From Actinomycetota bacterium (lineage in GTDB: Bacteria > Actinomycetota > CADDZG01 > JAHWKV01), in contig JAHWKU010000010.1 of the NCBI GenBank assembly GCA_019347715.1, forward strand, positions 10,805-74,804: a stretch of DNA of 64,000 bases, given 5' to 3'. This document shows positions 4,115 through 64,000 of this stretch, one piece after another. The position numbers were made by a program, and so were the translations under genes. Under the pieces are notes generated by a model. It worked only from the letters and a program-made list of their open reading frames with translations. It was not told where the DNA came from and did no database searches. Position 1 is the first letter of the stretch. Each line of letters begins with the position of its first letter.

Positions 4115-5077
4115 ATGCGAGCGCTTGTAACAGGAGGGGCAGGATTCATCGGCTCCCACCTTATCGACGCGTTGTTGGAACGCGATGATCAGGTAATCGC
4201 GCTCGACAACCTCGCCACCGGCAGTCACGACAACATTCGTGACCACATCGGCGATCATCGCTTCGAGTTCGTCCTCGGCTCGATCATGAACGCCGATCTG
4301 GTCGACGACATGGTTTCGAGAGCAGATGTTGTCTTCCATCTAGCCGCCGCCGTCGGTGTGAAACGCATCATCGAGCGCCCTCTGGAATCCTTGCTTACCA
4401 ACATACGCGGCTCCGAGATCGTTCTCGAGAAGGCTCACAAGCACGGCCGTAAAGTCTTGATCACCTCCACATCCGAGATCTATGGCAAGAACACCAATGT
4501 TCCACTCCAGGAGGACGGTGACCGCCTGCTGGGTTCCCCTCTGGTGGATCGCTGGAGCTATTCCACCTCCAAGGCAGTGGATGAAATCTTGGCCGCTGCA
4601 TATCACCGCACCAAGGGACTTCCCACCATCATCGTCCGTCTCTTCAACACCGTGGGCCCGCGCCAATCACCCGACTACGGGATGGTCATTCCTCGGTTCG
4701 TCGAGGCGGCACTTTCCGGCAAGGATCTCATCGTCCACGGCGATGGAAGTCAAACCCGATGCTTCGGTTACGTGGGCGACATCGTTCCGGCCCTCCTCGC
4801 GCTTGCCGAGAACCGGGAGGCGGAGGGAATCGCGATCAACCTCGGATCCACCGAAGAGGTTTCCATCAATCAGTTGGCCGAGTTGGTCATCGAGATGACG
4901 AATTCCAACTCGACGATCAGATACGTGCCTTACGAGGAAGCTTACGAATCAGGTTTCGAAGATATGCCTAGAAGAGTCCCGGACATCTCCAGGGCTCGTA
5001 AGCTGATCGGCTTCGAGCCGAAGACCTCTTTGCGCGAGATCGTCGACATGATGATCATCGACTCGCAGAGGACTTGA
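4115..5077 (+). CDS. NAD-dependent epimerase/dehydratase (extended SDR; UDP-sugar decarboxylase or epimerase-like)
   Basis: 320 aa. N-terminus MRALVTGGAGFIGSHLIDALLERDDQVIALDNLATGS with the GxxGxxG Rossmann motif. YxxxK present (YSTSK). Confidence 0.85.
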   Translation: MRALVTGGAGFIGSHLIDALLERDDQVIALDNLATGSHDNIRDHIGDHRFEFVLGSIMNADLVDDMVSRADVVFHLAAAVGVKRIIERPLESLLTNIRGSEIVLEKAHKHGRKVLITSTSEIYGKNTNVPLQEDGDRLLGSPLVDRWSYSTSKAVDEILAAAYHRTKGLPTIIVRLFNTVGPRQSPDYGMVIPRFVEAALSGKDLIVHGDGSQTRCFGYVGDIVPALLALAENREAEGIAINLGSTEEVSINQLAELVIEMTNSNSTIRYVPYEEAYESGFEDMPRRVPDISRARKLIGFEPKTSLREIVDMMIIDSQRT

Positions 5078-6078
5078 CCACCTATCTCCTGGCATTTGCC
5101 GTCGCTCTGATATCGGCGCTGGCGGCAACTCCCGTGGCGAGGAGACTCGCCCTTCGCTTCGGAATCATGGATTCACCGTCCGACCGTAAGGTTCATCGAG
5201 ACCCGGTTCCCTATCTTGGGGGCTTGGCGATTGTCCTTGCATTTGCCGTTGCGATGGTCGGAGGCGCTCTATTACGGAACGTCTTGGCCGAATCCGTTCT
5301 GCAGATTGCAGTACTCCTCGGAGGCGGTCTCCTTCTTGCATTTATGGGTCTTTGGGATGACTTGAGAGTGGTTCCTGGTTGGATAAAGGTTCCGGTCGAG
5401 CTGGGCCTGGGTGCCCTTCTTTATCTCGCAGGAGTGAGAGCGGAGTTATTCGGGGTAATGCCCCTCGACCTTCTGATCACTATGGCCTGGGTGATCGGAG
5501 TCACCAACGCCGTGAACTACATGGACAACATGGATGGATTGACCGCTGGTGTTGTGTCGATCGCCTCGACTTACTTTGCGGTACTTGCCGCTCTATCCGG
5601 CCAACTCCTTGTCGGCAGTCTTTCCGCCGCCCTGGCAGGATGCGCTATCGGCTTCCTGTGGCATAACCGTCCGCCGGCTCGAATATTTATGGGGGATGCA
5701 GGGAGCCTCTTTCTGGGCTTCCTGCTGGCCGGCCTCGGTTTGCATCTGCGATTTGCGAACATAGCTCGGGTAACCTTTTTTGTACCCGTGGCCATCCTCG
5801 CTGTTCCGATACTCGACGCACTCATGGTGTCGGTCTCTCGAGCCATGAGGGGTCTCTCTCCCATCCGACCGGGTAAAGACCACATCTCCCACCGTCTCGT
5901 AGCCATCGGGATTCCTCCCAAGGGTGCCGTGGGTTTGATTTATTTTGCGGCCGCCGCCTGCGGGTGGATCGGAGTGGTGATTGCCTATGCCCAGCCATTG
6001 ACCGCCTACATGTTGATGGGCTGGTTGGTTATCTTGGGCGCGTTCGTTGGTCTGCTGCTGTTGAGGGTGAAGGTATGA
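5074..6078 (+). CDS. polyprenyl-phosphate N-acetylhexosamine-1-phosphate transferase (WecA/MraY family)
   Basis: 334 aa polytopic membrane protein. Signature NAVNYMDNMDGLTAGV and DAGSLFLGF. TTG start overlaps the upstream TGA (TTGA), and its own TGA overlaps the downstream ATG (ATGA). Confidence 0.9.
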   Translation: MTTYLLAFAVALISALAATPVARRLALRFGIMDSPSDRKVHRDPVPYLGGLAIVLAFAVAMVGGALLRNVLAESVLQIAVLLGGGLLLAFMGLWDDLRVVPGWIKVPVELGLGALLYLAGVRAELFGVMPLDLLITMAWVIGVTNAVNYMDNMDGLTAGVVSIASTYFAVLAALSGQLLVGSLSAALAGCAIGFLWHNRPPARIFMGDAGSLFLGFLLAGLGLHLRFANIARVTFFVPVAILAVPILDALMVSVSRAMRGLSPIRPGKDHISHRLVAIGIPPKGAVGLIYFAAAACGWIGVVIAYAQPLTAYMLMGWLVILGAFVGLLLLRVKV

Positions 6079-8619: not shown

Positions 8620-8625
8620 GCGCAG

Positions 8626-10626: not shown

Positions 10627-10631
10627 TTCTG

Positions 10632-41237: not shown

Positions 41238-41282
41238 TGATTGCTGAGGAGCCATGGCTTTTGGAGGTTGGAAGGTAGTTCG

Positions 41283-42137
41283 ATGAAACAGTCTTCCCCA
41301 GAGGGCGTGATCTATACGCCGGAGTCACAACTGCGGTCGCCAGGCCGATTGATCGGAACGATGGGCCGGGATCTCATTGCTTCGCGGGAGTTGGCGTGGC
41401 GGCTAGTTGTCCGCGATTTGCGGGCCAGATATCGCCAGACGGCATTTGGATTTCTCTGGGCATTCCTGCCTGTCCTTACCGCGCTTGTATTCCAGTTGCT
41501 GAACCAATCTCAAGTCTTTGAGGTACGAGACACGCGAATTCCGTATCCGCTGTTTGTGATGTTTGGAACCATTCTCTGGCAGACCTTCGTTGACAGCCTC
41601 AACGCACCGATCCGAGCGTTGACAAAAAACAAGTCCATGCTCGCGAAGGTCAACTTTCCCCGCGAAGCTCTGATTCTTGGGGCCGTGGGGGAGGTTCTAT
41701 TTGATCTTGGGATTCGAGCAGTGCTGCTGGTGGGTTTCACGGTCTGGTATGGCGTGGAACCCCAGCTCGGGATGGTTCTTGCACCATTCGCCGCTCTGCT
41801 TCTTGTTCTGCTTGGAATGATGATCGGTCTTTTCCTTGCCCCATTCGCGCTTCTCTATGAAGATGTCACCCTGGCTCTTCCGCCAATCATGACGGTGTGG
41901 ATGTTCTTAACGCCCGTCGTCTTTCCTGTTCCTGCCAGTGGACTACTCAGTCGAGTCATGCATTTGAACCCCGCCACGTCGATTCTTGCAGGCGTCCGAG
42001 ATCTTGCTACCACCGGTGGCATGCCTGGCCTCTCATCTTTCCTTGTGGTGTCTGGGACGACATTTGTAGCTTTGATGGGGGTCTGGGTGATCTACAGACT
42101 TTCCATTCCTATTCTCATTGAACGGATAACCGCATGA
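41283..42137 (+). CDS. wzm: ABC-2 type polysaccharide exporter permease (Wzm/KpsM/TagG family)
   Basis: Track ORF 41241..42137. ATG at 41283 with GGAGG/GGAAGG upstream. 6 TM helices. RARYRQTAFGFLWAFLPVLTAL matches the ABC-2 signature region. Confidence 0.85.
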   Translation: MKQSSPEGVIYTPESQLRSPGRLIGTMGRDLIASRELAWRLVVRDLRARYRQTAFGFLWAFLPVLTALVFQLLNQSQVFEVRDTRIPYPLFVMFGTILWQTFVDSLNAPIRALTKNKSMLAKVNFPREALILGAVGEVLFDLGIRAVLLVGFTVWYGVEPQLGMVLAPFAALLLVLLGMMIGLFLAPFALLYEDVTLALPPIMTVWMFLTPVVFPVPASGLLSRVMHLNPATSILAGVRDLATTGGMPGLSSFLVVSGTTFVALMGVWVIYRLSIPILIERITA

Positions 42138-43462
42138 GCGACCCTGTTATCCGAGTAGAGGGCTTGTCCAAGAAGTTCTGCAATCGTCTCCGCCGCGCCC
42201 TATGGTACGGCGTCAAGGACCTAGGCTCCGAGCTCTTGCTTCGCCGAAGGCCCCGGGACCAACTGAGGCGTGACGAGTTTTGGGCCTTGAAAGATGTTTC
42301 GTTCGAAGTATCTCCTCAGGAAACCTTTGGGCTTATTGGACACAACGGAGCAGGGAAGAGCACCCTTCTTAAACTCATGAATGGATTAATTCGGCCCGAT
42401 ACGGGTTCAATCATGGTTCGAGGGCGGGTGGGGGCGTTAATTGAGTTGGGATTGGGGTTCAACCCGGTTCTGACAGGGCGCGAGAACATTCAAGTGAATG
42501 CGGCAGTCCTCGGCTTCAAGAAATCAGATATAAAACGGAAAATGCAACAAATCATCGACTTCGCTGAGATTGGGGACTTCATCGATGCCCCAGTTCAAAG
42601 CTTTAGCTCGGGGATGAAGGTCCGACTGGGGTTCGCGATTGCCGCTCATCTAGACCCTGATGTCCTTCTCGTTGACGAAATACTAAGTGTGGGGGATTCA
42701 TCTTTTCGGGATCGCTGCGTCAGCCGGCTGAACAACTTTAAGGAAGAGGGTGGCACGATAGTTTTCGTCTCCCATAATTCGCTCGCTGTTGAAGCTATCT
42801 GTGATCGAGTACTCCTGCTGGATCACGGACAGGTAGTTGAGGTTGGAGACCCGAGTGCCGTGGTTGAGAGATATGAGACGGATTCCAGGCAGAAGTCTTT
42901 CATCGCCGGGCAGTCGCTTCGATTAAGTCCCCAGCCTTCCAGTGATGAAAGTGTGATTGAAATCGTTTCGTGCGAACTGCAAGACAGCGAAGCCCAACTA
43001 CGAAATGAGTTCAACATCGGCGAGACCATCGAGATTCGGCTGTCCTATCATGCAAGAGAGGAAATTAAGCGCCCCTATTTCGATGTAGCGTTATACCGCG
43101 ACAATTGGCCTGCAGATCCCATCAGTTACATGAGCACTCTGGAGGAAGGATTTGAGATCGAATCCGTCTTGGGATCTGGTTCCTTCAGCTGCCTGATCCA
43201 TAAACCAAACCTTGCTCCCGGCCCTTACCACTTGTCGGCAGGCGTAAGGAGGACCACCACCACCCAACTGGGGTCAAAGTGGTATGCCCCTCTGCGTCCG
43301 GTCGCGAAATTCAACGTCTCATCTTCCGATCTGCGTAACCGGATGAAGGGCCGAAGAGCAGCTAGTCTGACTAGGGCAGCACCTCTTCTTCTGGATCATC
43401 GTTGGTCATGGAATGATCGGGTCATGGCTGTTGGCGACTATGTGCCTGAGCACGACCATTAG
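42134..43462 (+). CDS. wzt: ABC polysaccharide exporter ATP-binding protein (Wzt/TagH/KpsT family) with C-terminal carbohydrate-binding domain
   Basis: 442 aa. Walker A GHNGAGKST, signature LSSGMKVRLGFA, Walker B LLVDE. About 190-aa beta-rich C-terminal extension as in O-antigen-terminus-binding Wzt proteins. ATGA coupling with wzm. Confidence 0.85.
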   Translation: MSDPVIRVEGLSKKFCNRLRRALWYGVKDLGSELLLRRRPRDQLRRDEFWALKDVSFEVSPQETFGLIGHNGAGKSTLLKLMNGLIRPDTGSIMVRGRVGALIELGLGFNPVLTGRENIQVNAAVLGFKKSDIKRKMQQIIDFAEIGDFIDAPVQSFSSGMKVRLGFAIAAHLDPDVLLVDEILSVGDSSFRDRCVSRLNNFKEEGGTIVFVSHNSLAVEAICDRVLLLDHGQVVEVGDPSAVVERYETDSRQKSFIAGQSLRLSPQPSSDESVIEIVSCELQDSEAQLRNEFNIGETIEIRLSYHAREEIKRPYFDVALYRDNWPADPISYMSTLEEGFEIESVLGSGSFSCLIHKPNLAPGPYHLSAGVRRTTTTQLGSKWYAPLRPVAKFNVSSSDLRNRMKGRRAASLTRAAPLLLDHRWSWNDRVMAVGDYVPEHDH

Positions 43463-49959: not shown

Positions 49960-51330
49960 ATGGCGAAGACGATTCAAGGCGGACGAGCAATTCTTGTAGA
50001 GGGGACGCGTCCTTCAACAATTGTGTTCCTGACGGCATCTTCTGTTATTGCAGGATGGGTTGTTGTCATGCGGCCAGCGAGTGCCCTTATCATCCTTAGT
50101 GGGCTCGTTGTAATGTTCCTGGTCCTCTCGCAGCAGGTTCTCTTTTTGGTTCCCATGACAACCTTGGCCTTGGCCGTCGGTAGCTCCAGCCTTGTCTCCT
50201 CCGATTCATCAATCTCAAACTTCAAGTTCCTTATGGTGGCGGCTGTGGCTGTCAGTGGCTTGCTAGTTCTTGCCCGGACACGCCGGGTCGCCACTGGCTC
50301 TGGCATTATTGCTGCAGCGTTTGGGTTGGTGTTTTTTGCCTTTGTTTCGAGCCTTTACTCAACTAACCCTCGTCTGACGTTTGAACACTCGGTCGCACTC
50401 TCCCTTTTGTTTCTAAGCGCTCTCGTGGCAGTCCCCCTCCTCGTTTCAGATACGGCTAATTTGATACAGCTCGTCGGCGCGGTCGCCTTGACCGCCACGG
50501 CTTTGATCGTTGGGGGAATGGTGCTGGATGCGGCCGGCTTGATAGAGGGCTTTCAGGTTGGGAGATTCCAGGGACTCTTCCAAAATCCGAACATGATAGG
50601 TGCTTTCCTCGCTCCGGTACTTCCCGTTGTGGTTATTCTCGGCGTGGGGCAGAGGCAGAGACGTAAGGTTTTTATCGTGGCTGGGTTAGTCCTTTTCTTA
50701 GCTTTACTCCTGTCAGGCTCGCGCGGCGGACTTCTATCGTCGACTTTTGGAATGGCCGTGGGTTTCGCCGTCGCACGCAACGCGAAAAGGGCGCTGCTAT
50801 GGATTCTGATGGCTGCAATTGCGGCAGGAGCCGTTATCTCGTATCTGGACATTCGCATCCGTCCAGAGGGAGAGGGACTCTTTGAGGCTGGTACGGGGAG
50901 CAATCGCCTGATGGCTTGGGAAGACGGCATGCGGGTCATTTCCGAACGACCCTTGATTGGACACGGATTTGGAGTAACGCTTGAGTACTTTCCCGAGGTG
51001 AGGACCGAAAGTCTCTACCGAGGCAGTTCTAAATTTTTTCGCTTGCATAGCAGCTTCCTGGAAACCGCACTGGAACTGGGATGGCTCGGCGCGGGCTATC
51101 TAGTCCTGCTAGCCACGTCAGGGGTATGGAGGGGATGGAGGTTAGCCAGAGCAAGACCGCATGTGAAATGGCTGGTCGCGGCCCTTGCGGGAGGAATCGC
51201 CGGGGGCGCAATGGAGGGAGTATTCGAGGCGGGTCTTCTTGCGGCAGGGGGACTGCTCGCGTTTCACTTCTGGATCTTGGTTGGGGCGGTCCATTCGTTG
51301 AGCGGTGCTCGTCACAAATTGGTGCAGTGA
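49960..51330 (+). CDS. O-antigen ligase/polymerase-like (Wzy_C) membrane protein
   Basis: 456 aa, about 11 TM helices. FQNPNMIGAFL and LLLSGSRGGLLS periplasmic-loop motifs are typical of the O-antigen ligase family. Confidence 0.8.
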   Translation: MAKTIQGGRAILVEGTRPSTIVFLTASSVIAGWVVVMRPASALIILSGLVVMFLVLSQQVLFLVPMTTLALAVGSSSLVSSDSSISNFKFLMVAAVAVSGLLVLARTRRVATGSGIIAAAFGLVFFAFVSSLYSTNPRLTFEHSVALSLLFLSALVAVPLLVSDTANLIQLVGAVALTATALIVGGMVLDAAGLIEGFQVGRFQGLFQNPNMIGAFLAPVLPVVVILGVGQRQRRKVFIVAGLVLFLALLLSGSRGGLLSSTFGMAVGFAVARNAKRALLWILMAAIAAGAVISYLDIRIRPEGEGLFEAGTGSNRLMAWEDGMRVISERPLIGHGFGVTLEYFPEVRTESLYRGSSKFFRLHSSFLETALELGWLGAGYLVLLATSGVWRGWRLARARPHVKWLVAALAGGIAGGAMEGVFEAGLLAAGGLLAFHFWILVGAVHSLSGARHKLVQ

Positions 51331-53644: not shown

Positions 53645-55377
53645 TCTTAGGTATCAACGCTTACCACGGTGATTCCTCGGCTGCTCTTTTCTCCGATGGC
53701 CGATGTATCGCCGCGGTTGAACAAGAGCGCTTTTCTCGGCTGAAGCACCATGCTGGTTTCCCGGATCTTGCGATCCAAGAGTGCCTCGAGATGGTTGTTG
53801 CCGGGCCTGAAGCTATAGAGCACATCGCCATAGGGCGCGATCCGTCAGCTCATTTTCACAACAAAGTCCTATTTGGACTGAAGCGAGTCTCCTCCATGAA
53901 GGAGATGCTCGGGGCCCGTCTGGCCAATGCTGCCAAAGTTCTGGATAACAAGGATTCAGTGGCGACAGCTCTAGGAGTCAATGCCAAAGATCTTCAGGCC
54001 AAGAACCATCGTGTGGAACATCACCGCGCTCACCTAGCGAGTGCTCTTTTTTGCTCACCCTTCGAAGATGCAGTTTGCCTCTCGGTTGACGGGATGGGGG
54101 ATTTTGCCTCGACCATGTGGGGCAGGGGAGCTGGTTCCAAGATCGATGTCGACGGCCAAGTGCTGTATCCGCACTCTCTCGGCATTTTCTATACGGCTCT
54201 CACGCAGTTCGTTGGGCTTCCGAGCTATGGCGATGAATACAAGTTGATGGGACTCTCGGCGTACGGGGAGCCGCGCTTCCTGACCCAGATGCGAGATGTC
54301 GTGCGGTTGGGAGAAGGCCTGAATGTTGAGCTGAACCTCGATTACTTCGTCCACGACAAAGAGGGCGTCGAGATGACTTGGGAACAGGGGACTCCCGAAA
54401 TCGCTCCTCTTTGGTCAAAGAAGATGGAAGAGGTTTTCGGTGCAGCACGTGCTTACCGGGGGGACGTTACGGAGAGGGATAAGGATCTGGCCGCAAGCGT
54501 TCAGGCACGACTGGAGGAGATCGTTCTCGAGATGCTGCGGCGTCTATATAAAAGGACGGGGACCCCTCGCCTCGTGATGGCCGGAGGAGTGGCGCTCAAT
54601 TGTGTGGTGAATGGCATGATTCGAAGCGAGACGCCGTTCGAGGAAGTGTGGATTCAGCCCGCCGCTAACGATGCCGGGATCTCCATCGGAGCAGGTCTTT
54701 GGGTTCAGCACCAGATCTTGGGCCAAGAGCGTTCGTGGGTGATGGATCACGCCTTGCTCGGCCCCGAGTTCTCGGACACCGACTACGAGATGGCTCTGGA
54801 AGGGCTTGATGTTCCCTATCTCTCGCTTGATGACGAGAAGCTGGTGGATGAGGCAGCCAAGCGGATCGCCGACGGAAAGATCGTCGGGTGGTTCCAGGGG
54901 AAGATGGAATTTGGTCCCCGTGCTCTTGGGAATCGCTCGATCGTTTGCGATCCCAGACGTCACGACATGAAGGACATCTTGAACTCCCGCATCAAATATC
55001 GGGAGCCGTTCCGGCCGTTCGCGCCTTCGATTCTCCAGGAGAAGACCGGCGAGTGGTTTACCCAAGACTACCCATCGCCGTTCATGCTGATGGCTTACGA
55101 GGTGAGACCCGAGAAGAAAGACGAGATCCCTGCCGTCACCCACGAGGATGGAACTGGGCGACTTCAAACCGTCGATTCGTCTACCAACCCGAGATACCAT
55201 GGGTTGATCTCCGCCTTCGAGAGACTTACGGGAGTGCCCGTGGTTCTGAACACTTCGTTCAACGAGAACGAACCGATCTGCTGTACGCCCGCGGAAGCCA
55301 TCGACTGCTTTCAGAGGACGCAGATGGATACTCTTGTGCTCGGCAACTTCATCGTCGATAAGAGGATCTCCCGATGA
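53641..55377 (+). CDS. carbamoyltransferase (NodU/CmcH family)
   Basis: 578 aa. MILGINAYHGDSSAALFSDGRCIAAVEQERFSRLKHHAGFP and HHRAHLASA (YrdC/Kae1-like fold) are characteristic. Confidence 0.9.
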   Translation: MILGINAYHGDSSAALFSDGRCIAAVEQERFSRLKHHAGFPDLAIQECLEMVVAGPEAIEHIAIGRDPSAHFHNKVLFGLKRVSSMKEMLGARLANAAKVLDNKDSVATALGVNAKDLQAKNHRVEHHRAHLASALFCSPFEDAVCLSVDGMGDFASTMWGRGAGSKIDVDGQVLYPHSLGIFYTALTQFVGLPSYGDEYKLMGLSAYGEPRFLTQMRDVVRLGEGLNVELNLDYFVHDKEGVEMTWEQGTPEIAPLWSKKMEEVFGAARAYRGDVTERDKDLAASVQARLEEIVLEMLRRLYKRTGTPRLVMAGGVALNCVVNGMIRSETPFEEVWIQPAANDAGISIGAGLWVQHQILGQERSWVMDHALLGPEFSDTDYEMALEGLDVPYLSLDDEKLVDEAAKRIADGKIVGWFQGKMEFGPRALGNRSIVCDPRRHDMKDILNSRIKYREPFRPFAPSILQEKTGEWFTQDYPSPFMLMAYEVRPEKKDEIPAVTHEDGTGRLQTVDSSTNPRYHGLISAFERLTGVPVVLNTSFNENEPICCTPAEAIDCFQRTQMDTLVLGNFIVDKRISR

Positions 55378-55416
55378 GCTTTCCCACTGCCTGGCAGTCT
55401 GGCTTCCAGATGGTTC

Positions 55417-56547
55417 ATGCAGTCTGGCAAAAAGGGCCACCGGCGCTGGACCTGGTGGAGATGCAACATCCTCAATATGAATGCCGCGGGCCTAGAGTTG
55501 CGGCTTTCCTCCCAACAGCTCTGTGGCTGGCGCAGTAAAGATTCGGTAGTGATGCAATCATGGGTTGAGGACACCCTGGCATGCCCCCGTGATGGCGTAT
55601 CTCTAAGTCTGAAGGGAGATGTGCTCAAATGCCCCGAGGGTCATGAATACCCCCTCATCCTGGGCGTTCCGGTGATGCTGATCGATGAGGCGCCTCCTAC
55701 GCATGGGGCCATTAGGGAAACCTTGAATCAGGTGACGGGCGAGCTTGGCTATCCCGAGATTGGGGACCCCCAAGAAACACGGCAGTTTGTACAAGACATG
55801 TTGGGCGCAACCTGTGGACACATGTATCAGCATGTCAAGTCCTTACAGGACTATCCGATCCCTCGGTTCCCCCTTTCTCCTGAGTTCGCGGGAGCCACGC
55901 TCATAGACATCGGCTCAAATTGGGGAAGGTGGTCGTTCTCAGCCGCTCGGAAGGGATTCAGAGTTGTGGCGGTAGATCCTTCCTTAAGGAGTGCCCTGGC
56001 GGGCAAGGAGATAGCGCGCCAGATAGGTCTTCCGGTTTCGTTTATCGTTGGAGATGCCCGATTCTTGCCCTTCAAATCTCGAACTTTTGATGTTGCATTC
56101 TCATATTCCGTTCTTCAGCACTTCAGTAAGAGTGATGCTCAGCTGGCGATAGACGAGGCCTCTAGAGTTCTGAGGCCGGACCGGACCATCTTGGTTCAGA
56201 TGGCGAACGGACGGGGACTCAGGCAACTCTTTAACCGGTTGAGACAGCAGGTAAAGGCGGATACCAATCCCTTCCGAGTTCGGTACTGGACCATCCGCGA
56301 GCTAAACGCTGTATTCGAACAAATAGGGAAGACTTCGATTTCAGCAGATGGTTACCTATCATTGAATGCTCAAATCTCGGATATTGACATCTTGCCTAGA
56401 AGATATGGATTCCTAATCCGGTTTTCTGAAGCTCTGAAAGGAGTTGCCGCGAGGAGGCCGATCCTAACGGAATTCGCCGATAGCCTATGGGTAATGTCCA
56501 GGAAGAGAGCGCAGGATGGCACCCCGGGCAGCCCGCCTGAGACCTAA
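55417..56547 (+). CDS. class I SAM-dependent methyltransferase with N-terminal Trm112-like zinc-ribbon domain
   Basis: Start uncertain (an alternative Met is near 55547). LACPRDGVSLSLKGDVLKCPEGHEYPLILGVPVML is Trm112/DUF343-like. The MT fold is TLIDIGSNWGRWSFSAARKGFRVVAVDPS. Confidence 0.75.
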   Translation: MQSGKKGHRRWTWWRCNILNMNAAGLELRLSSQQLCGWRSKDSVVMQSWVEDTLACPRDGVSLSLKGDVLKCPEGHEYPLILGVPVMLIDEAPPTHGAIRETLNQVTGELGYPEIGDPQETRQFVQDMLGATCGHMYQHVKSLQDYPIPRFPLSPEFAGATLIDIGSNWGRWSFSAARKGFRVVAVDPSLRSALAGKEIARQIGLPVSFIVGDARFLPFKSRTFDVAFSYSVLQHFSKSDAQLAIDEASRVLRPDRTILVQMANGRGLRQLFNRLRQQVKADTNPFRVRYWTIRELNAVFEQIGKTSISADGYLSLNAQISDIDILPRRYGFLIRFSEALKGVAARRPILTEFADSLWVMSRKRAQDGTPGSPPET

Positions 56548-56589: not shown

Positions 56590-56794
56590 GGGGGGGTGTC
56601 ATCGGCTCTTGCCGGGATACCATGGGTTCTTTCACATTCGAGAGACTAACGGGAGTGCCCGTGGTACTGAACACTTCGTTCAATGAGAATGAGCCCATCT
56701 GGTGCACGCCTGCGGAAGCCATCGACTGCTTTCAAAGGACGCAGATGGATTCTTTGGTGCTCGGGAACTTCATCGTCGACAAGACGAACTCCTG
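56590..56794 (+). pseudogene. 3' fragment of a carbamoyltransferase gene (duplicate of 55175-55377 region)
   Basis: About 87 percent nucleotide identity to the 3' end of 53641..55377 by my manual alignment. The frame is intact over the last 55 codons (FERLTGVPVVLNTSFNENEPIWCTPAEAIDCFQRTQMDSLVLGNFIVDKTNS*). Upstream of that it is degenerate and shifted. It ends in the same TGATGAGCTTT stop/start junction. Confidence 0.7.
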
Positions 56795-59695
56795 ATGAGC
56801 TTTGCTCCCGAGTGGTATCCCTTCGCGGGGTTTCTCATCGCCCTCGGAGCGGGTCTCCTTCTCATGCCGATCACGATCGCGTTGGCAAGGAAGTTCGGTT
56901 TTGTTGTTCGGCCTCGTCTGTTCAAGAGGGGGCGAAGGAGGTCCATCTCATATCTCGGCGGGATCGCAGTGGCCGCCTCGACACTGCTCGGCTTCGGCGT
57001 CCTCGGGGAGGCCAGCGAGATCTTCTACTTTCTTCTGGCGGGGCTGTTGCTCATGGTTATCGGGTTTGTCGATGACCGCTCGGGCGGCAAGGTGCCGGCG
57101 TGGGTGAGGCTCGTTGCGCAAATTCTCGTAGCCACGCTGGTTGCGGTCTATCTCTACGAAGGAAGCCTGGCCAAGGCGCTCTTCGAGATCTTTTTGATCG
57201 TGGCGGTGACCAATGCCTTCAATCTCCTCGACAACATGGACGGCGTGGCCGGCACGACCGCCTTCGCGACGGCCTCGAGCATTTCGTTTCTCGCCATGGT
57301 CGGAGGAAGGCCGAACATAGCTCTCACCGCGGCCTGTCTGGCCGGCGCATCGATCGCATTTCTCCGTCACAACTTTCGATCCGCTACGAGCTATCTCGGA
57401 AACGGCGGTTCTCTTTTCATCGGGTTTCTGATTGCTGCCCTTGCGGTCAACACCGGGCTCCCCCTTGGTACCGGGTGGGAGCTGGTGGGGGCCGTGTTGT
57501 TACTGGCCGTTCCCACCACCGACATGTTCGTCGTGACGATCGCTCGATTCATTCATCGAAAGAGACTGTCCCACGGCGGAGTCGATCACGTCTCTCATCG
57601 ACTGGTGAGGATGGGACTCAGCAGCAGGATGGCAGCACTGCTTCACGGGCTGGCTGCGCTGGTTGCAGGGGCCATGGCGTACCTGGCGAGCAACTTCGCG
57701 CAGCCGGAGATTCTCGTCGGCGCCGTGGCGGCGTTCGCGCTAGCCGGCATCGTATTACTGAGCGTGCGGGTGTATGCGGAACCAAAGTCGTGGCTTAGGA
57801 CCGCCGCTTTGGCTGTCTCGGTTACGTTGCTGGGCTTTGTTCTGATGGCCGTTGCCCCGACGCTCTCGGCCGCGTCCGACCTTCATTCCTCGCGCGCTCA
57901 TTTCGAAAAGGGCCTGGACGCGTTCATGGCCTTTCAGTCCCAAAAAGCGGCGGCGGAGTTCAAGTCCGCGGGGGAGTCTGCTCGCAGAGCTGAGGAGACT
58001 CTGGGATCGTTCTTCACGGTTCCCGCCAGAGCGCTTCCGATCGCAGGACCGAACCTTCGGCTCGCTCGAGATCTCGCCGAAGCTGCAGACCTCCTGACGC
58101 CTGCGGCACTGGCAGGTGTTGAAGCCTTATCGGCCTTCCCTCGCGACGCACAGAATCGACCGGTCATCGGGCTCGTGGAGGGCCGCATCCAGTACGCGGG
58201 ATGGGTGCATGCCAAGGACTATTTCGATCAGGCGGCATCGGCTGTGCGACTCGCCCTGGTGAAGGCCAATGCAGAAAGAGGATTCGTTCTTCCTCCTTTG
58301 TCCAGTGCCAGAGCCGACTTCGTGACCAAAGGAAACGAGCTGCTGCGAACGCTCGAAGGGGCTTCGGGGCTGGCTGAGATCTTGCCTCTCATCTCGGGAG
58401 CGGATGGGCCCAAGACCTGGTTTCTCGCCATCCAGAATCCGGTCGAACTCCGTGCAACCGGAGGATTTCTTGGGGCGTTCGGATTGCTCTCGGCAGATGC
58501 CGGAAAGATCAGTCTTCTGCGCCTCGACTCCAACCTCTCTCTTCCGCCTCTTCCTCAGGACGTCGGGCCTGAGGCCGTGCATGCTCGCTACGACCGGTTC
58601 GCCTCCAACCGGATGTGGCAAAACGTGAACATGACGCCGGACTTCCCGACCGCGGCCCAGCAGATGATGGCGATGTGGGAAGCGCAGTCGGGACAGAAGG
58701 TGGATGGAGTGGTCGCCATCGACGCGGTCGGCCTGAGCCATCTCTTAGAGGTCGTCGGGCCGGTGGCAACAGAGGACTTCGGGATGATCGATTCCGAGAA
58801 CTTCTCGCGGGTCACTCTGAACGAGGCCTACACCCGCTTTCCGGAAAAGGCTGAGAGGGCCGACGTGCTGCTGTCGGTTGGAGCCGCGGCATGGTCGAGG
58901 CTTCTGTCCGGAACCTTCGAAAACCCATTAGAGCTGAGGCCGCTCGCCAAGGCGGTTGCCGAGCGACACGTCTTCGCGTGGAGTCCCCTAAATCCTTCCG
59001 CCTTTTCAAAGGCGAAAGCTTCCGGTGCTCTAAGGGAGCCCCAAGACAACGAAGACTTCCTCATGGTCGTGGGGCAAAACGCTGCTGCCAACAAGATCGA
59101 TTACTACATGAAAAGAACCATTAATTATCAAGTGAAACTTTTGCCCGAGGGCCGTTCTGAATCCGATCTCCAGGTCGCCATCGCCAACACCGCTCCCAAG
59201 TCTGGATTGGTGAAATACATCGCCGGCCCTTACCTGCCGACCGATCCCGCCGGGCTGAATCGTTCCTACACCTCTGTTTATGTTCCTTTGAACCGTGGCG
59301 TGATATCCGCTCAGGTGAATGGTGAAGCAGCCGGCGTGGAGAGCCATCAGGAAAAAGGACTGGCGGTGTTCTCGAATCACCTGGAAGCTCTGCCGGGAGA
59401 GACTTCCGCTATGCATCTGTCATTGGCCGGCGGAGTTCATCGACCCGGCGAATACGTGCTTCACGTTCAAAAGCAGCCAACTCTTCGCGCAGACGACTTC
59501 ACGGTCGAGGTGACGATCCCATCGGGAATGGTTGTCACCGGGATGACCTCGGGGATGACTATTGAAGGAGACAATGTGCGCTGGAACGGCACGCTCGACA
59601 CCGACAAGAAGTTCGTCGTTCGTTATGGAAACTCTCTGGTGGACCGTATCAAGAGCTTCATCCAGTCGGATTCGGATCTCGCGATCTCGGCTTGA
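56795..59695 (+). CDS. fusion: WecA/MraY-family polyprenyl-phosphate HexNAc-1-P transferase + DUF4012 domain
   Basis: Track ORF 56702..59695. ATG at 56795 (MSFAPEWYPFAGFLIALGAG...). N-terminal about 330 aa are polytopic with NAFNLLDNMDGVAG. The C-terminal about 630 aa carry the DUF4012 signature LAIQNPVELRATGGFLGAFGLL. Confidence 0.8.
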   Translation: MSFAPEWYPFAGFLIALGAGLLLMPITIALARKFGFVVRPRLFKRGRRRSISYLGGIAVAASTLLGFGVLGEASEIFYFLLAGLLLMVIGFVDDRSGGKVPAWVRLVAQILVATLVAVYLYEGSLAKALFEIFLIVAVTNAFNLLDNMDGVAGTTAFATASSISFLAMVGGRPNIALTAACLAGASIAFLRHNFRSATSYLGNGGSLFIGFLIAALAVNTGLPLGTGWELVGAVLLLAVPTTDMFVVTIARFIHRKRLSHGGVDHVSHRLVRMGLSSRMAALLHGLAALVAGAMAYLASNFAQPEILVGAVAAFALAGIVLLSVRVYAEPKSWLRTAALAVSVTLLGFVLMAVAPTLSAASDLHSSRAHFEKGLDAFMAFQSQKAAAEFKSAGESARRAEETLGSFFTVPARALPIAGPNLRLARDLAEAADLLTPAALAGVEALSAFPRDAQNRPVIGLVEGRIQYAGWVHAKDYFDQAASAVRLALVKANAERGFVLPPLSSARADFVTKGNELLRTLEGASGLAEILPLISGADGPKTWFLAIQNPVELRATGGFLGAFGLLSADAGKISLLRLDSNLSLPPLPQDVGPEAVHARYDRFASNRMWQNVNMTPDFPTAAQQMMAMWEAQSGQKVDGVVAIDAVGLSHLLEVVGPVATEDFGMIDSENFSRVTLNEAYTRFPEKAERADVLLSVGAAAWSRLLSGTFENPLELRPLAKAVAERHVFAWSPLNPSAFSKAKASGALREPQDNEDFLMVVGQNAAANKIDYYMKRTINYQVKLLPEGRSESDLQVAIANTAPKSGLVKYIAGPYLPTDPAGLNRSYTSVYVPLNRGVISAQVNGEAAGVESHQEKGLAVFSNHLEALPGETSAMHLSLAGGVHRPGEYVLHVQKQPTLRADDFTVEVTIPSGMVVTGMTSGMTIEGDNVRWNGTLDTDKKFVVRYGNSLVDRIKSFIQSDSDLAISA

Positions 59696-61689
59696 AACGG
59701 AGAACCCTTCTCCTCGTTTCTTCGGCTCTTGCTTTTTTAATCCTGCCGACACTCGTTTCTGTAGCTCTCGCGCGGGGCCATCTGGTTAGCGCGGAGCAAT
59801 ATCTCCTGCGAGCGAAAGGAAATCTGAAGGCATTTGATTTGCCAGCAGCGGAAAGTGATCTCAAGGCCGCCGACGCTTCACTACGCAGGGGAGAGCGGCT
59901 TGTCGACTCTCCGATCAACTTCGGAGGACTGTTGGTTCCCATCGTGAGTGAGAACCTGACGGTACTTCGAGCGATTGCGGACTCGTCAGGTGAAGCAATT
60001 GCCGCCGGCCAATCTGCAATCGCGGTTCTGAATGCCTTCCCTCGTCAGGAAGGGCGATTGGTCGCACCGTGGAGAGAGGGGGCGGTGAACCTCGAGCCTT
60101 TCAGGCACCTCGAGGCCGAGACTTCATTCATGCGAAGCCGAGTGGAAGCCGCGGCCGCCAGGATGTCGAACACCTCGCCCGATCTCCTTTTGCCGGCCAT
60201 GTCCCGTGCCCGTAGTCGACTCACCAGCGAGCTGGTTGTCGCGCGTGCTCAGGCCAGAGCAGCTACGGGGGCAGCCTTTCTCATCCCGAGAATGCTGGGC
60301 GACGAAGGAGCGCGCAGATGGATCATCGGTGCCGAGAACATTGCGGAACTGAGAGGGCGAGGAGGCTACGTTGGTTCATTCGGCGTCCTCGAGACGACGA
60401 AAGGTCGCATGGCCCTCGGCGATTTTGTCCCGGTCGCAGATCTTCCTGCCTTGTCTTCCGAGTTGAGACGCAATCCCGACGTGCCGCCGGAATACCGGGA
60501 GCACTACGCCGAGATCGGAGGGCTGGACGCCTGGCCCAACCTTTTCATGAGTCCCAGCTTTCCTTCCGGAGCATCTTTGTTCGCAAGGCAATTGAAGAAT
60601 CAGGTGGGAATCTCATCGGATGGTGTGATCTCAATCGATCCTATTGGGCTCTCATACCTCATGGAAGTGACCGGACCCGTGACGGTCGAGGGATTCCCCG
60701 AACCCCTCACTTCAGAAAATGTCGTTGAGTGGTCGCTCAGCCGCCTGTATTCCGATCTCGAGCAAGATCAGGACGCACGCCGCGAGCAATCATCGAAGAT
60801 CGCGGAGGCGGTATGGCGTCAGCTGACGACGGCAAGGTCGCTGGACTCGCGCAAGCTCTCTGAAGCGTTCGGACGTGCCCTCGCCGAACGCAGAATGGTC
60901 TTGTGGTCAAAGGAATCTCGGGAGCAGAGCGAAATCGAGAAGCTGGGGATTGGTGGGACCATCTCACAATCGCCTGGGGATTATTTGATGCTTGTCAGTC
61001 AGAACTTCGGTGAGAACAAGCTCGATTACTACCTGGAACGCAGCATCGAACTGACCGGCCGGATCCGCTCCGATGGGAGCCTGCTCGCGGAGACGAAAGT
61101 GACGGTGACGAACACCGCCTCCACGGATGTTGATCTTCCGGGAGCGGTTGGAGGGGAGCGGCCCCGGCTCGACCTGGCCTCCGGCACCGCGCGCAGCTTC
61201 CTAAAGCTTTTCGTCCACCAGAATGCTGTGCTCACCGAAGTTCTGAAAGATGGAGAGCCGACCACCGACTTCGAAAACTCCCCCGAACTCGGAAAGAGGC
61301 GATTCGCGGTCTACGCCGAAGTTGCTCCTCGAGAAACCCAGGAGTTTCGGTTCCGCTATCTCGTTCCCGACATACTCGACGAAGAAGGCTACGACCTCAC
61401 GGTGCAGTCCCAGTCGACGGTGCGTCCCGATCGCCTAAGGGTGGATCTGGAATTGCCGGCGGGGGCGAGGCTCAGTCCCTCTGGTACTCAGCGGATCCAA
61501 TGGAGCGAGGCCCTTACTGCGGATAAGACGCTGCACGCCAGCATCGATCGAACCGTTCCCATGAGAATCGCCGGCATCGCGGCAGGATTGGGGTCCTCAC
61601 AGTTGTGGCTTGCTCTCGGCCTGGGCGTCGTGCTGACTTTGGTGGGGATCTCGTTGAGGTTTCGGTTATCGAACAGAGAAATTCCGTAG
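59692..61689 (+). CDS. DUF4012 domain protein (membrane-anchored, extracytoplasmic)
   Basis: 665 aa. N-terminal signal/TM, DUF4012 signature IGAENIAELRGRGGYVGSFGVL, C-terminal TM helix. Paralogous to the C-terminal part of the preceding fusion. Confidence 0.8.
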   Translation: MKRRTLLLVSSALAFLILPTLVSVALARGHLVSAEQYLLRAKGNLKAFDLPAAESDLKAADASLRRGERLVDSPINFGGLLVPIVSENLTVLRAIADSSGEAIAAGQSAIAVLNAFPRQEGRLVAPWREGAVNLEPFRHLEAETSFMRSRVEAAAARMSNTSPDLLLPAMSRARSRLTSELVVARAQARAATGAAFLIPRMLGDEGARRWIIGAENIAELRGRGGYVGSFGVLETTKGRMALGDFVPVADLPALSSELRRNPDVPPEYREHYAEIGGLDAWPNLFMSPSFPSGASLFARQLKNQVGISSDGVISIDPIGLSYLMEVTGPVTVEGFPEPLTSENVVEWSLSRLYSDLEQDQDARREQSSKIAEAVWRQLTTARSLDSRKLSEAFGRALAERRMVLWSKESREQSEIEKLGIGGTISQSPGDYLMLVSQNFGENKLDYYLERSIELTGRIRSDGSLLAETKVTVTNTASTDVDLPGAVGGERPRLDLASGTARSFLKLFVHQNAVLTEVLKDGEPTTDFENSPELGKRRFAVYAEVAPRETQEFRFRYLVPDILDEEGYDLTVQSQSTVRPDRLRVDLELPAGARLSPSGTQRIQWSEALTADKTLHASIDRTVPMRIAGIAAGLGSSQLWLALGLGVVLTLVGISLRFRLSNREIP

Positions 61690-62113: not shown

Positions 62114-62665
62114 ATGGGTAATCATCTACCGATTATGAAGAGAGCCCTGCTGTTAACCATTGTTCTAGTTTTCCTTTTTCTTCTGCCCACTGCGGCAGTC
62201 GCGCAGTACCCGCCAACCGTCGGGGATTTGGTCATCGACAAAACCGTGGTGGAGCCCGGAGAGTCCGTCCGGGTATCCGGCGGCGGTTTCTGTCCAGGGA
62301 CTCAGGTGACCGTGACGCTAGTTCCAACCGGTTCGACGACCGGTGCGCCTCGGGCGCTCGGGACATTCACCACAGACGCCTCGGGCAATTTCGCGGGAAG
62401 CGTGATTATCCCTACCGATACTCCTCCCGGCACATACACGCTTCAAGCGACGGGTCAGAGCAGTGATTGCGTTGCGACTCGGGTCCTTAGTGCCAATCTC
62501 ACCGTGCGGGCCGCGCAGGCCGCGGTCGCTCGGGGCCCCCGTGGCTTTGGCGCAGTAACAGGGATCGAAGCGCTCCCCTGGGTGGTAGGCGGCTTGGCGG
62601 TAATCGGGCTTGGGACTGGGATGGTCGTGATCTCACGCCGCCGCTCCCGTGCTCCCCTGAGCTGA
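62114..62665 (+). CDS. secreted Ig-like/beta-sandwich protein with C-terminal TM anchor
   Basis: 183 aa. Signal peptide MKRALLLTIVLVFLFLLPTAAVA, Gly/Thr-rich beta region, C-terminal hydrophobic helix plus RRRSR. Preceded by an AT-rich promoter-like stretch. Confidence 0.5.
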   Translation: MGNHLPIMKRALLLTIVLVFLFLLPTAAVAQYPPTVGDLVIDKTVVEPGESVRVSGGGFCPGTQVTVTLVPTGSTTGAPRALGTFTTDASGNFAGSVIIPTDTPPGTYTLQATGQSSDCVATRVLSANLTVRAAQAAVARGPRGFGAVTGIEALPWVVGGLAVIGLGTGMVVISRRRSRAPLS

Positions 62666-62737: not shown

Positions 62738-64000
62738 ATCCTGGAACTCCGTGACTATCTGAGGCTTCTCTGGCGGCGCAAGTTCCTTATAGCGCTTGCC
62801 GTTGTCGTTGCCACCGGTTCGGCTCTAGCTTTCTCGCTGCGACAGACGCCACTGTATGAAGCTTCGGCCAAGATCTTTATCGGTTACCGATCGGTCGGCG
62901 AGGGAGACGTTTCGTCCGCGCTGCAGGAACTGACCGCCGGCGATCGATTCATGACCTCCTACGCCGAGGTTCTCAAGAGTCAGCCGGTTGCAGCAAAACT
63001 GATTGACAGGGAGAACCTTCCTGCCGATTCTCAAGATGTCGCCGCCTCGGTTGAAGCTCGGGTCATTCCGGATACCCGCATCATCGAGGTGACCTACACC
63101 GATACCGATCCCCGGAGAGCACGACGAGCCGCCAATTCCTTGGTAGCAATCTTTGTTCAAGAAGAGGTAGAGAACCTCGGAGGGGCCGAAGCCGTATCGG
63201 CAAGACTCCTGGAGCCTGCTCAGCTTCCAACCGAACCGGTCAGTCCCAAGCCTCTTCGCGATGGCCTCCTCGGAGGAGTTCTCGGCCTGGCACTTGGAGT
63301 CGGAATGGCCTTTCTCCTCCAGCAGCTCGACACGACCCTTCGCACCAGAGAGGACGTCGAGGAGGCTCTGTCGCCCCTTCCGGTGCTGGCGGGAATTCCC
63401 AAATCCGACGCCGGAAAGGAACGAGCGCTCTTCTTCGAAAACGACACTCGGTCCCCGGCGTCGGAGGCCATCCGGAATCTTAGGACCAACATTCAGTTCT
63501 TCTCGGTTGATAACCCCATCCGTCTGCTCGTTGTGACGAGCCCTTATGCTGAGGACGGCAAGACCACCGTTGCCGCCAATTTAGCTGCGGCCATAGCAGC
63601 ATCGGGCGTGAGGGCACTGGTGATGGAGGCGGACCTGAGACGCCCAGCGCTCGGCGAGTACTTCAACTACTTCGATCCGCAAAAGCGCGGGGGCCTGACC
63701 GAGGTGCTGGCCGGCGTCGAGAGGCTCAAGGATGTCATCAGAAAGACTCACATCCCGAACCTTTCCTTCCTTCCCGCCGGCTCAATTCCGCCCAACCCAT
63801 CCGAGCTTTTGGGAAGCCATCGGATGGAGGAGGTGCTGGATGAAATGAGGACTCATGCCGACGTGGTCGTGATCGACACCCCTCCAGCCCTCGCAGTCAC
63901 TGACTCTCTCGTGCTAGGAGGGAAGGCAGATGGCGTGGTGCTGGTCGTGCGGGCCGGGGTGACTCATCGCGAGAGGGCGAGAGAAGCCAAGGATGTGTTC
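62738..64000 (+). CDS. Wzz/Wzc-like polysaccharide co-polymerase with BY-kinase domain (3'-truncated); non-canonical start
   Basis: Open frame from the TAA at 62735 to the window end. ILELRDYLRLLWRRKFLIALAVV is a Wzz N-terminus with TM. ...LLVVTSPYAEDGKTTVAANLA is the Walker A of a BY-kinase. ...VVVIDTPPAL is Walker B-like. No ATG/GTG/TTG near the N-terminus. ATC at 62738 lies 5 nt after GAAGGA. Confidence 0.7.
   Translation, partial: MLELRDYLRLLWRRKFLIALAVVVATGSALAFSLRQTPLYEASAKIFIGYRSVGEGDVSSALQELTAGDRFMTSYAEVLKSQPVAAKLIDRENLPADSQDVAASVEARVIPDTRIIEVTYTDTDPRRARRAANSLVAIFVQEEVENLGGAEAVSARLLEPAQLPTEPVSPKPLRDGLLGGVLGLALGVGMAFLLQQLDTTLRTREDVEEALSPLPVLAGIPKSDAGKERALFFENDTRSPASEAIRNLRTNIQFFSVDNPIRLLVVTSPYAEDGKTTVAANLAAAIAASGVRALVMEADLRRPALGEYFNYFDPQKRGGLTEVLAGVERLKDVIRKTHIPNLSFLPAGSIPPNPSELLGSHRMEEVLDEMRTHADVVVIDTPPALAVTDSLVLGGKADGVVLVVRAGVTHRERAREAKDVF

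Follow-up and report, generated by a model that had tools for sequence, protein, structure and literature searches.

A PNPT-type transferase joined in one protein to DUF4012, a possible LCP-like module of the outer face, in an actinobacterial glycan locus

What does DUF4012 do on the outer face of the membrane when it is covalently joined to the kind of enzyme that primes lipid-linked glycans? The question is raised by a 64,000-nucleotide stretch of an Actinomycetota genome (assembly GCA_019347715.1, contig JAHWKU010000010.1, positions 10,805 to 74,804), referred to here as the window. Towards its end lies a gene for a membrane transferase module of the PNPT (MraY/WecA) superfamily that continues into a DUF4012 ectodomain, and a second, stand-alone DUF4012 gene follows. 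An earlier reading of the letters by themselves (the sequence-only reading) had pointed out both genes. Our best reading, offered tentatively, is that DUF4012 is an outer-face handler of polyprenyl-pyrophosphate-linked glycan, resembling the ligases of the LytR-CpsA-Psr (LCP) family, and that its action is coupled to the priming step. On this view the protein would be a PNPT primer joined to a possible LCP-like outer-face module.

One continuous gene encodes the fusion

56795..59695, + strand: PNPT-DUF4012 fusion gene, 966 amino acids plus stop, Pfam PF00953 and PF13196, start ATG 56795
59692..61689, + strand: stand-alone DUF4012 paralog, 665 amino acids, TTG start overlapping the TGA of the fusion by 4 nt

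From 56702 to 59695 (+ strand) the frame is open throughout, without stop or frameshift. Both domains are recognised by Pfam, namely PF00953 (Glycos_transf_4) at aa 77-219 (E 2.9e-22, 79.8 bits against a cutoff of 27) and PF13196 (DUF4012) at aa 537-679 (E 1.4e-39, 136.3 bits against a cutoff of 28). The sequence-only reading had described a 997-aa protein. The single fused chain holds, and the length does not, as it was counted from a GTG at 56702; ATG 56795 gives 966 aa, identical to the NCBI protein model from the metagenome-assembled genome (MAG), P0001, and agrees with the N-termini of homologs in the alignment. The GTG start was rejected, its 31 additional codons being an out-of-frame repeat copy of the 3' end of a carbamoyltransferase gene. 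This end is copied in a 167-nt direct repeat of 89% identity (55216-55382 versus 56637-56803), the second copy of which still reads EPIWCTPAEAIDCFQRTQMDSLVLGNFIVDKTNS* when translated, with its TGA overlapping ATG 56795. The repeat copies flank an S-adenosylmethionine (SAM) methyltransferase gene (55417-56547) on either side, and this gene looks like a cassette inserted between two genes that were once coupled.

The fusion architecture was found in 19 protein clusters at 90% identity (P0001-P0019, 100-28% identity), drawn from NCBI, ENA, JGI and Logan, all with PF00953 plus PF13196 and about 960-990 aa long. A scan of GTDB species genomes gave full-length fusion matches in six genomes (L006-L008, L010, L012, L027), exclusively in uncultured Actinomycetota, Acidimicrobiia and Acidimicrobiales MAGs; the matches in Streptosporangiaceae were to stand-alone DUF4012. 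An additional homolog search with the DUF4012 alignment as query returned zero new sequences. Because the fusion is conserved in 19 clusters and six GTDB genomes, it is neither a chance feature nor an assembly artefact. We give practically no weight to an overlooked stop codon, a shifted frame or a chimera of the assembly as its origin: the frame is continuous, the architecture recurs in independent clusters and MAGs, and the single-chain AlphaFold2 (AF2) model is confident, linker helix TM12 included. The earlier claim of a physical fusion is thus borne out, other such fusions have been located, and the missed stop codon that the sequence-only reading had named as a danger is refuted.

Topology and domain structure

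56795..57793, + strand: PNPT (MraY/WecA-superfamily) membrane module, aa 1-333, 11 transmembrane (TM) helices
57791..57874, + strand: TM12 linker helix, aa ~333-360, from hydropathy and loop charges; AF2 helix 333-378
57875..58393, + strand: ectodomain helical bundle, aa ~361-533, from AF2; collinear with paralog aa 30-201
58394..59029, + strand: DUF4012 alpha/beta core, aa ~534-745, containing the Pfam DUF4012 match
59030..59635, + strand: C-terminal beta-sandwich region, aa ~746-947, from AF2 (strands 754-945) and Foldseek

The fusion has 12 hydrophobic helices, and lysines plus arginines number 20 on the predicted cytoplasmic loops versus 2 on the outer loops, so the catalytic loops are placed inside and DUF4012 outside. 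The extracytoplasmic position of DUF4012, for which the sequence-only reading had advised a topology prediction, is upheld by this positive-inside count. TM12 is predicted to take over where TM11 ends on the cytoplasmic side and to bring the chain to the outer face.

The AF2 model of the whole fusion has a pLDDT of 92.3 and a pTM of 0.81. Beyond the membrane it predicts a helical bundle (helices 353-378, 382-403, 417-446, 467-491 and 500-533), then the alpha/beta core and the beta-sandwich. The ectodomains of fusion and paralog are collinear over 581 residues (29% identity, E 2e-53), and the homologous ectodomain is therefore about 580-600 aa long. The '630-aa DUF4012 domain' described earlier is sound as an ectodomain of roughly that size and not as the Pfam DUF4012 model, which itself spans 144 aa. 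In Foldseek the beta-sandwich resembles the N-domain of LTA4-hydrolase/M1-aminopeptidases and DUF4424 (4g2a), a 19-stranded beta-sandwich (PMC3848476). A peptidase reading of the M1-aminopeptidase matches was rejected, as they span only the non-catalytic N-terminal beta-sandwich.

Conserved residues and resemblance to LCP ligases

Fourteen polar residues, conserved at 94-99% over 191 DUF4012 sequences, occur without exception in the two window proteins (fusion/paralog):

Alpha/beta core: E551/E219, R553/R221, D643/D316, N669/N343, Y679/Y353, R688/R363
Beta-sandwich: D754/D430, N762/N438, K767/K443, D769/D445, R774/R450, N798/N474, E853/E532, Q894/Q574

All are near-invariant, as is G556/G557 of the fusion core. 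To judge by the alignment, the fourteen argue for a catalytic or ligand-binding site, and a passive scaffold fits them poorly. The conserved mix of Arg/Lys (R553, R688, R774, K767) and acidic residues (E551, D643, D754, D769) would fit a phosphate or cation ligand.

Compared with the PDB in Foldseek, the model of the paralog gave 19 matches at E<=1e-3. Its beta-sandwich matches (the M1-aminopeptidase/LTA4-hydrolase N-domain, 4g2a and ITIH) probably correspond to the C-terminal part of the modelled ectodomain. The sole alpha/beta family retrieved for the core was LCP, with 13 structures (3pe5, 8qty, 3nxh, 3owq, 2xxq, 3tep, 3tel, 4de8, 3tfl, 2xxp, 3qfi, 6uf3 and 6uex) that include Cps2A, TagT/YvhJ, TagV, S. 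aureus LcpA and LytR. These matches have E-values of 1e-4 to 3e-3 over about 240 columns, with TM-scores normalised to the LCP chain of 0.43-0.51. Going by the predicted models, an LCP-like fold of the DUF4012 core is somewhat favoured; LCP-like chemistry may follow from it, and we are less confident of that than of the fold.

LCP enzymes transfer polyprenyl-pyrophosphate-linked polymers to peptidoglycan, and one of them, LcpC, attaches capsule precursor to lipid II (PMC6441080). Like the LCP ligases (Cps2A, TagT/U/V, S. aureus LcpA/LcpC), DUF4012 is extracytoplasmic and membrane-anchored, has an alpha/beta core of about 220-250 residues and is encoded beside a priming transferase, a Wzz/bacterial tyrosine kinase (BY-kinase) and a phosphatase. 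Unlike them, it adds a helical bundle and a large beta-sandwich, is without detectable sequence or profile similarity to LCP, and has not evidently kept the RSD, PRD and GRxxRQ motifs. Of the roles suggested by the sequence-only reading (length control, ligation or processing of the polymer), ligation gains some support from the fold matches of the paralog.

The PNPT half and its catalytic motifs

The PNPT motifs of the fusion are D93 D94; N140-x2-N143-x2-D146-N-M-D149-G; L-G-N203-G-G-S; and D264-H265-x2-H268. Those of the DD, NxxNxxDxxDG and DHxxH types are invariant in 16 fusion homologs and agree with the signature of 93/100 non-fused relatives. In Foldseek the N-terminal third of the fusion model matches MraY (TM-score normalised to the target 0.74-0.78, E ~1e-8) and also human DPAGT1, and the module folds with a broken TM9a/9b as in MraY. 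By fold and homology the module is a member of the superfamily. Since the NCBIfam scores all fall below threshold (TIGR02380, the WecA equivalog, 83.4 bits against a cutoff of 326; MraY models likewise), it is not a WecA equivalog. The label 'WecA-like' used earlier accordingly suits the superfamily level (PF00953) and fails as an equivalog assignment.

57401..57403, + strand: N203 codon; the residue aligns with the Mg2+-binding Asp of MraY (AaMraY D265)

Alignment to MraY (4j72/5jnq) sets 'lGNgGS' of the fusion against 'mGDvGS' of 4j72, with N203 at the Asp site. AaMraY D265 has been described as an essential catalytic residue (PMC5039524); the literature searched held nothing on WecA D217. 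Relative to the initiating transferases of this superfamily (E. coli WecA, B. subtilis TagO, P. aeruginosa WbpL, with MraY as paradigm), the window module shares PF00953, the fold, the motifs and 11 TM helices, and differs in the Asn for Asp, the extra TM12 and the 600-aa ectodomain.

Every PNPT-containing protein collected (100 non-fused, 41 PNPT-DUF4012 fusions) was aligned to one hidden Markov model (HMM). Asp occupies the MraY-D265 position in all 100 non-fused relatives, with the complete 'DDNNDNDDGSDDHH' signature in 93, and in 19 of the 41 fusions, 17 of which retain the whole signature. Seven fusions have Asn there (the window protein, P0002, P0006, P0008, P0009, P0011 and P0140); their remaining signature positions are all canonical, and they are spread over at least two separate clades. 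About 15 of the 41 carry other residues at this position and have largely lost the DD, NxxNxxDxxD and His motifs (among them P0141, P0142, P0187, P0200, P0214, P0217, P0222, P0239, P0260, P0286 and P0288), and these retain a recognisable PNPT membrane domain. Two of the decayed fusions, P0142 and P0138, adjoin methyltransferase genes, the former at the end of a glycosyltransferase/Wzy_C/methyltransferase cluster.

In the decayed proteins a polytopic transferase seems to have become a natural pseudo-enzyme. Because about 15 of the 41 fusions have lost the motifs, catalysis by the fused PNPT half is, on the evidence of the alignment, dispensable in many lineages, and the catalytic competence of the window module is uncertain. 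The 'complete HexNAc-1-P transferase' of the sequence-only reading therefore stands as regards PF00953, the fold and the other motifs, and falls short at the Mg2+ site, where Asp is Asn and many sister fusions are decayed. The first lipid-linked intermediate may be made by another enzyme instead of this module, or by this module and another.

The fusion might instead be an active primer of the WecA/TagO type, in which N203 is tolerated and DUF4012 is a tail with a role outside the chemistry of the pathway, such as localisation to zones of wall growth or peptidoglycan binding. All seven D-to-N fusions, the window protein among them, keep the other PNPT motifs invariant, which indicates purifying selection on the module, and the D-to-N change arose at least twice. 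We nevertheless consider this explanation quite improbable, given the Asp in 100/100 non-fused relatives at a residue essential in MraY (PMC5039524), and given that the many fusion partners of DUF4012 and its stand-alone copies in the same loci speak for a pathway role of its own.

5074..6078, + strand: second, stand-alone PNPT, 334 amino acids, canonical signature FMGDAGS, Pfam PF00953 (E 3.2e-30)

This second PNPT was found with a purpose-built HMM in a separate glycan locus 50 kb upstream and is 29% identical to the PNPT module of the fusion (BLASTP, E 1e-22). Because it terminates right after TM11, TM12 of the fusion can be regarded as a linker that was added, and as the counterpart of the signal-anchor found in stand-alone DUF4012 proteins. 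The closest non-fused relatives of the PNPT module (P0021-P0120) are proteins of about 600 aa with PF13727 (CoA_binding_3) plus PF00953, from Acidobacteriota, Planctomycetota, Omnitrophota and others; PF13727 is mainly known as a partner of PF02397 transferases.

Fusion partners and gene contexts of DUF4012

A DUF4012 profile search that covered 1.84 billion representatives returned 16,925 clusters at E<=1e-3 and 10,074 at E<=1e-30; the family comprises about 17,000 clusters, counted at 50% identity. Among the best 150 representatives, about 22 have a PNPT-like N-terminus and about 6 a PF02397 N-terminus, one (P0195, 1245 aa) is a Wzz+GNVR+BY-kinase-DUF4012 protein, and one (P0186, 824 aa) joins a low-molecular-weight phosphotyrosine phosphatase to DUF4012. 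A further 91 of these 150 (among P0149-P0291) have an N-terminal anchor of about 170 aa with 4-6 TM helices and without a Pfam match. That this anchor is a truncated PNPT is unsupported: hhalign pairs the last TM and the juxtamembrane stretch alone (E 8e-4, probability 24%), and beyond the last TM the comparison with PNPT gives E 0.076.

The fusions with PF02397 (P0123-P0136, P0139, P0154, P0161 and P0263), a PglC/WbaP-type monotopic transferase family, come from Actinomycetota metagenomes and follow the same logic as the window fusion, with the primer inside, one TM and DUF4012 outside. They differ from it in their unrelated transferase fold, in which the catalytic DE dyad and the PRP motif are intact. 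One of them, P0263 (1478 aa), has a long N-terminal extension ahead of PF02397 and DUF4012. DUF4012 is tied to the priming step whatever the fold of the primer. Its fusions to PF02397, Wzz/BY-kinase and low-molecular-weight phosphotyrosine phosphatase lend further weight to the earlier inference that DUF4012 and the priming enzyme serve one pathway.

Gene order tells a similar story. A Streptosporangium locus reads DUF4012, LMWPc, Wzz/kinase, PNPT; the fusion on the P0012 contig adjoins a Wzz/kinase gene; and LMWPc lies close by in L003 and L005. In the exopolysaccharide (EPS) cluster of Bifidobacterium longum 105-A, cpsD (the primer), DUF4012 and wzz stand in order (PMC5412050). The DUF4012 gene between them, BL105A_0406, belongs to the same Pfam family, and differs from the window fusion in being a stand-alone gene, there called only an 'auxiliary protein' from its BLAST label (PMC5412050). 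These contexts agree with the recurrence of DUF4012 in actinobacterial surface-polysaccharide loci that had been asserted beforehand. Its description as a domain without assigned function was likewise right: the searched literature holds only three passing mentions, none of them functional, and nothing on DUF4012 fused to priming transferases or on an LCP-like fold. The window proteins have already been deposited under the name 'DUF4012 domain-containing protein'.

An alternative is that DUF4012 works on the outer face without catalysis, as a scaffold or co-polymerase-like regulator that signals across the membrane to the module attached to it and organises a complex of priming enzyme, Wzz/BY-kinase, phosphatase and exporter, with the PNPT half serving mainly as a membrane or lipid-binding anchor. 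Fusion to the regulatory partners Wzz-kinase and phosphatase would suit such a role, as would the long helical bundle ahead of the core, the different 4-6-TM anchor in 91 of the best 150 family members, the loss of catalytic motifs in about 15 of 41 PNPT fusions together with the Asn at the Mg2+ site of the window protein, and a beta-sandwich resembling domains proposed to build large complexes (PMC3848476). We regard this explanation as unlikely, since 14 polar or charged residues held at 94-99% in the core and the start of the sandwich are more typical of an active or ligand site, and since the locus already has a Wzz/kinase protein.

The same residues bear on a different possibility, which we consider highly unlikely, that DUF4012 is an outer-face enzyme acting on the sugar chain and not on its lipid-pyrophosphate end, such as a hydrolase, a lyase or a trimming or releasing enzyme that might set chain length or release exopolysaccharide. 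The conserved acidic residues E551, D643, D754, D769 and E853, the extracytoplasmic location and the constant occurrence in loci of the EPS and capsular-polysaccharide type are compatible with it. However, neither a glycoside hydrolase nor a lyase, by fold or by family, came out of Pfam, the PDB sequence search or Foldseek. Conservation of this degree across loci that make very different glycans is not what one would expect of a sugar-specific enzyme, and neither is repeated fusion to the lipid-handling primer in particular.

The stand-alone paralog

The second DUF4012 protein is identical to NCBI model P0121, and its Pfam DUF4012 match lies at aa 205-353 (E 1.2e-27, 97.6 bits against the cutoff of 28), so that an HMM search recovers the DUF4012 signature in both window proteins. 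It has an N-terminal signal-anchor after KRR and a C-terminal TM followed by RFRLSNR; the signal and anchor ascribed to it by the sequence-only reading are therefore confirmed, with anchors at both ends. Its AF2 model (pLDDT 92.1, pTM 0.88) is laid out as N-terminal TM, helical bundle (to aa ~201), alpha/beta core (~205-425), beta-sandwich (~430-616) and C-terminal TM.

The paralog is probably translationally coupled to the fusion. One ortholog aside, its nearest relatives are PF02397+DUF4012 proteins of 810-904 aa (38-47% identity; 40-47% for their DUF4012 domains), and some PNPT fusions are as close to it as the PF02397 fusions. It is not a recent tandem duplicate, because it is 29% identical to its neighbour versus 42-47% to the DUF4012 of other fusions. 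L012 likewise has a stand-alone DUF4012 gene after the fusion, and L007 has a second DUF4012 protein nearby. The paralog is absent from L001, a locus with a 63%-identical ortholog, where the fusion is followed by an MG2-like gene and a kinase-type ATPase.

A proposed mechanism

The preferred reading sees the fusion as a two-sided membrane machine of a surface-glycan pathway. Its PNPT module would bind polyprenyl phosphate and, if Asn203 still supports catalysis, attach a HexNAc-type sugar-1-phosphate to this lipid. The glycan would be built by the products of the glycosyltransferase, methyl- and carbamoyltransferase and nonulosonic-acid genes upstream, and Wzm/Wzt would export it. Outside, the DUF4012 core, as a distant structural relative of LCP, would bind the polyprenyl-pyrophosphate end of the finished glycan and either transfer the glycan to an acceptor (peptidoglycan or another wall component) or cleave it off. 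Transfer or cleavage would free polyprenyl phosphate beside the priming module. Because the lipid would be released there either way, the fusion would couple the first and last steps of the carrier-lipid cycle, as an analogue in one protein of the TagO-TagTUV or CpsE-CpsA pair.

Several known systems resemble this arrangement in part. In the streptococcal cpsA-E module, the partners of CpsA are of the primer, Wzz/kinase and phosphatase types. DUF4012 loci have the same partner set as the streptococcal and lactobacillal cpsA-B-C-D-E (epsA-E) modules and S. aureus CapA1/CapB/LcpC, namely a priming transferase, a chain-length/kinase pair, a phosphotyrosine phosphatase and an outer-face handler of lipid-linked glycan. 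CapA1 cleaves the lipid-linked precursor and releases undecaprenyl phosphate (PMC6441080). The window locus differs from cpsA-E in that its outer-face part is DUF4012 covalently fused to the primer and not a bona fide LCP, and in that it has an ABC-2 exporter and not an obvious Wzx flippase. With the wall-teichoic-acid pathway (TagO/TagGH/TagTUV) it shares the logic of PNPT, ABC-2 exporter and outer-face module. No LCP gene was detected in the window or in 85 PNPT/DUF4012 loci with a 4-sequence Firmicute HMM, which may miss divergent actinobacterial LCPs. As CpsBCD-type partners are present and no LCP gene was found, DUF4012 would fill the slot that CpsA has in Firmicutes.

Several results weigh against this reading. 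The LCP fold matches are borderline (TM-score ~0.5, rmsd 6-9 A). The structure prediction and fold comparison advised by the sequence-only reading were carried out with AF2 and Foldseek, and the LCP matches of the paralog core have no counterpart in the fusion's own model, which gave no LCP among its best 50 Foldseek matches (E<1.7e-3). Pfam at E<=10 gave no LytR_cpsA_psr (PF03816) match. With hhalign, a profile of the 191-sequence DUF4012 core against an 84-sequence LCP profile reached E 0.22-0.26 at a probability below 1%. With Asn203 at the Mg2+ site, and with about 15 of the 41 fusions decayed in their PNPT motifs, the partner module need not prime actively. The Wzy_C gene at 49960..51330 is a competing candidate for the transfer step (ligation or polymerisation), and the searched literature holds no experiment on any DUF4012 protein.

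The LCP profile was built from LCP sequences in the PDB alignments plus 80 metagenomic TagU-like genes, and hhalign was run globally and locally; homology of DUF4012 and LCP at the level of sequence was not significant. The best local alignment is collinear (DGVIxxDPxxLxxLLxxTGPV with LCP IDyYVxVNfxGFxxlVDalGGV) and was not counted as evidence. The DUF4012 profile against PDB sequences gave noise only (E>=0.03), with no LCP among the matches.

A more far-reaching version of the preferred reading, which we put forward as a conjecture that is rather less probable than otherwise, is that DUF4012 is an unrecognised, highly divergent LCP-like branch that performs the wall-attachment or lipid-release step in glycan pathways of actinobacteria (and of the candidate phyla radiation (CPR) and Chloroflexi). 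Fusion to both primer classes would then close the lipid cycle, the carrier being released outside and re-primed inside, and in many lineages the PNPT half would have decayed to a pseudo-enzyme kept as a polyprenyl-phosphate-binding or receiving module.

The surrounding glycan locus

The fusion lies in a glycan locus that extends from 29.8 kb to the end of the window (64 kb). Its content includes nonulosonic-acid genes (two NeuB, PseB/PseC-like, two CMP-transferases), a TylF methyltransferase, one GT-A and five GT-B glycosyltransferases, the carbamoyltransferase and the SAM methyltransferase, together with the following genes:

41241..43462, + strand: Wzm/Wzt-type ABC-2 polysaccharide exporter, Pfam ABC2_membrane, ABC_tran and Wzt_C
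49960..51330, + strand: Wzy_C (O-antigen ligase/polymerase-like) membrane protein, Pfam PF04932 (E 8.5e-16)
62114..62665, + strand: small secreted, anchored Ig-like (MG2-like) protein, 183 amino acids, weak Pfam MG2/FlgD_ig match
62738..64000, + strand: Wzz/GNVR chain-length determinant plus BY-kinase-type P-loop ATPase, open reading frame (ORF) exiting the window end

The exporter genes are ordered permease, then ATPase with a glycan-end-binding Wzt_C domain. They are flanked by ORFs 39780-41237 (485 aa) and 43676-45178 (500 aa), neither with a significant Pfam match, the latter with a faint match to a TagF-type glycerophosphotransferase (E 0.14). The gene for the MG2-like protein, which has a signal peptide and a C-terminal TM, also stands directly after fusion P0002 in L001 (6085-6627), and its product may be another component of the outer-face module. 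The last ORF matches Wzz (3.5e-12), AAA_31 (2.3e-11) and GNVR (8e-4) in Pfam.

Up to about 54 kb the GC content of the locus is 0.51-0.55 versus 0.60-0.64 in the preceding DNA, and from ~29800 to 54000 the GC skew is persistently positive. Both features would suit a surface-glycan locus that was acquired horizontally or evolves fast. An unusual protein of 748 aa, encoded at 30851-33097, carries a CBS domain, NeuB (nonulosonic acid synthase) together with SAF, and in addition a xylose-isomerase-like TIM barrel (AP_endonuc_2); the second, ordinary NeuB is encoded on the opposite strand at 35628-36674.

A second glycan locus occupies 1116-11540, with GT2, GT-B, methyltransferase, epimerase and GDP-mannose-dehydratase-type genes beside the stand-alone PNPT. 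Within it, 5964-8177 encodes a Wzy_C (O-antigen-ligase-like) protein, 737 aa in length, to which TPR repeats are fused at the C-terminus. At 16218-18656 an 812-aa radical-SAM plus CofH_C protein looks like a fused FO synthase (F420 biosynthesis), which is consistent with an actinobacterial origin of the window.

Biological significance

Attachment or release of capsular polysaccharide and exopolysaccharide is poorly understood in Actinomycetota, and DUF4012 is a very large family. Its assignment rests on convergent fusions (to two unrelated primers, to Wzz/tyrosine-kinase and to phosphotyrosine phosphatase), on the outward topology and on a possible LCP-like fold, and in combination this evidence points to the outer-face, lipid-pyrophosphate end of the pathway. 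The progression from intact PNPT through the D-to-N form to fully decayed PNPT offers a clean natural series of a membrane enzyme becoming a pseudo-enzyme. If the preferred reading is true, a missing ligase or release factor would be named for thousands of loci, those of probiotic bifidobacteria included. The first and last steps of undecaprenyl-phosphate use would then be physically coupled, which would bear on carrier-lipid economy and on antibiotic targeting.

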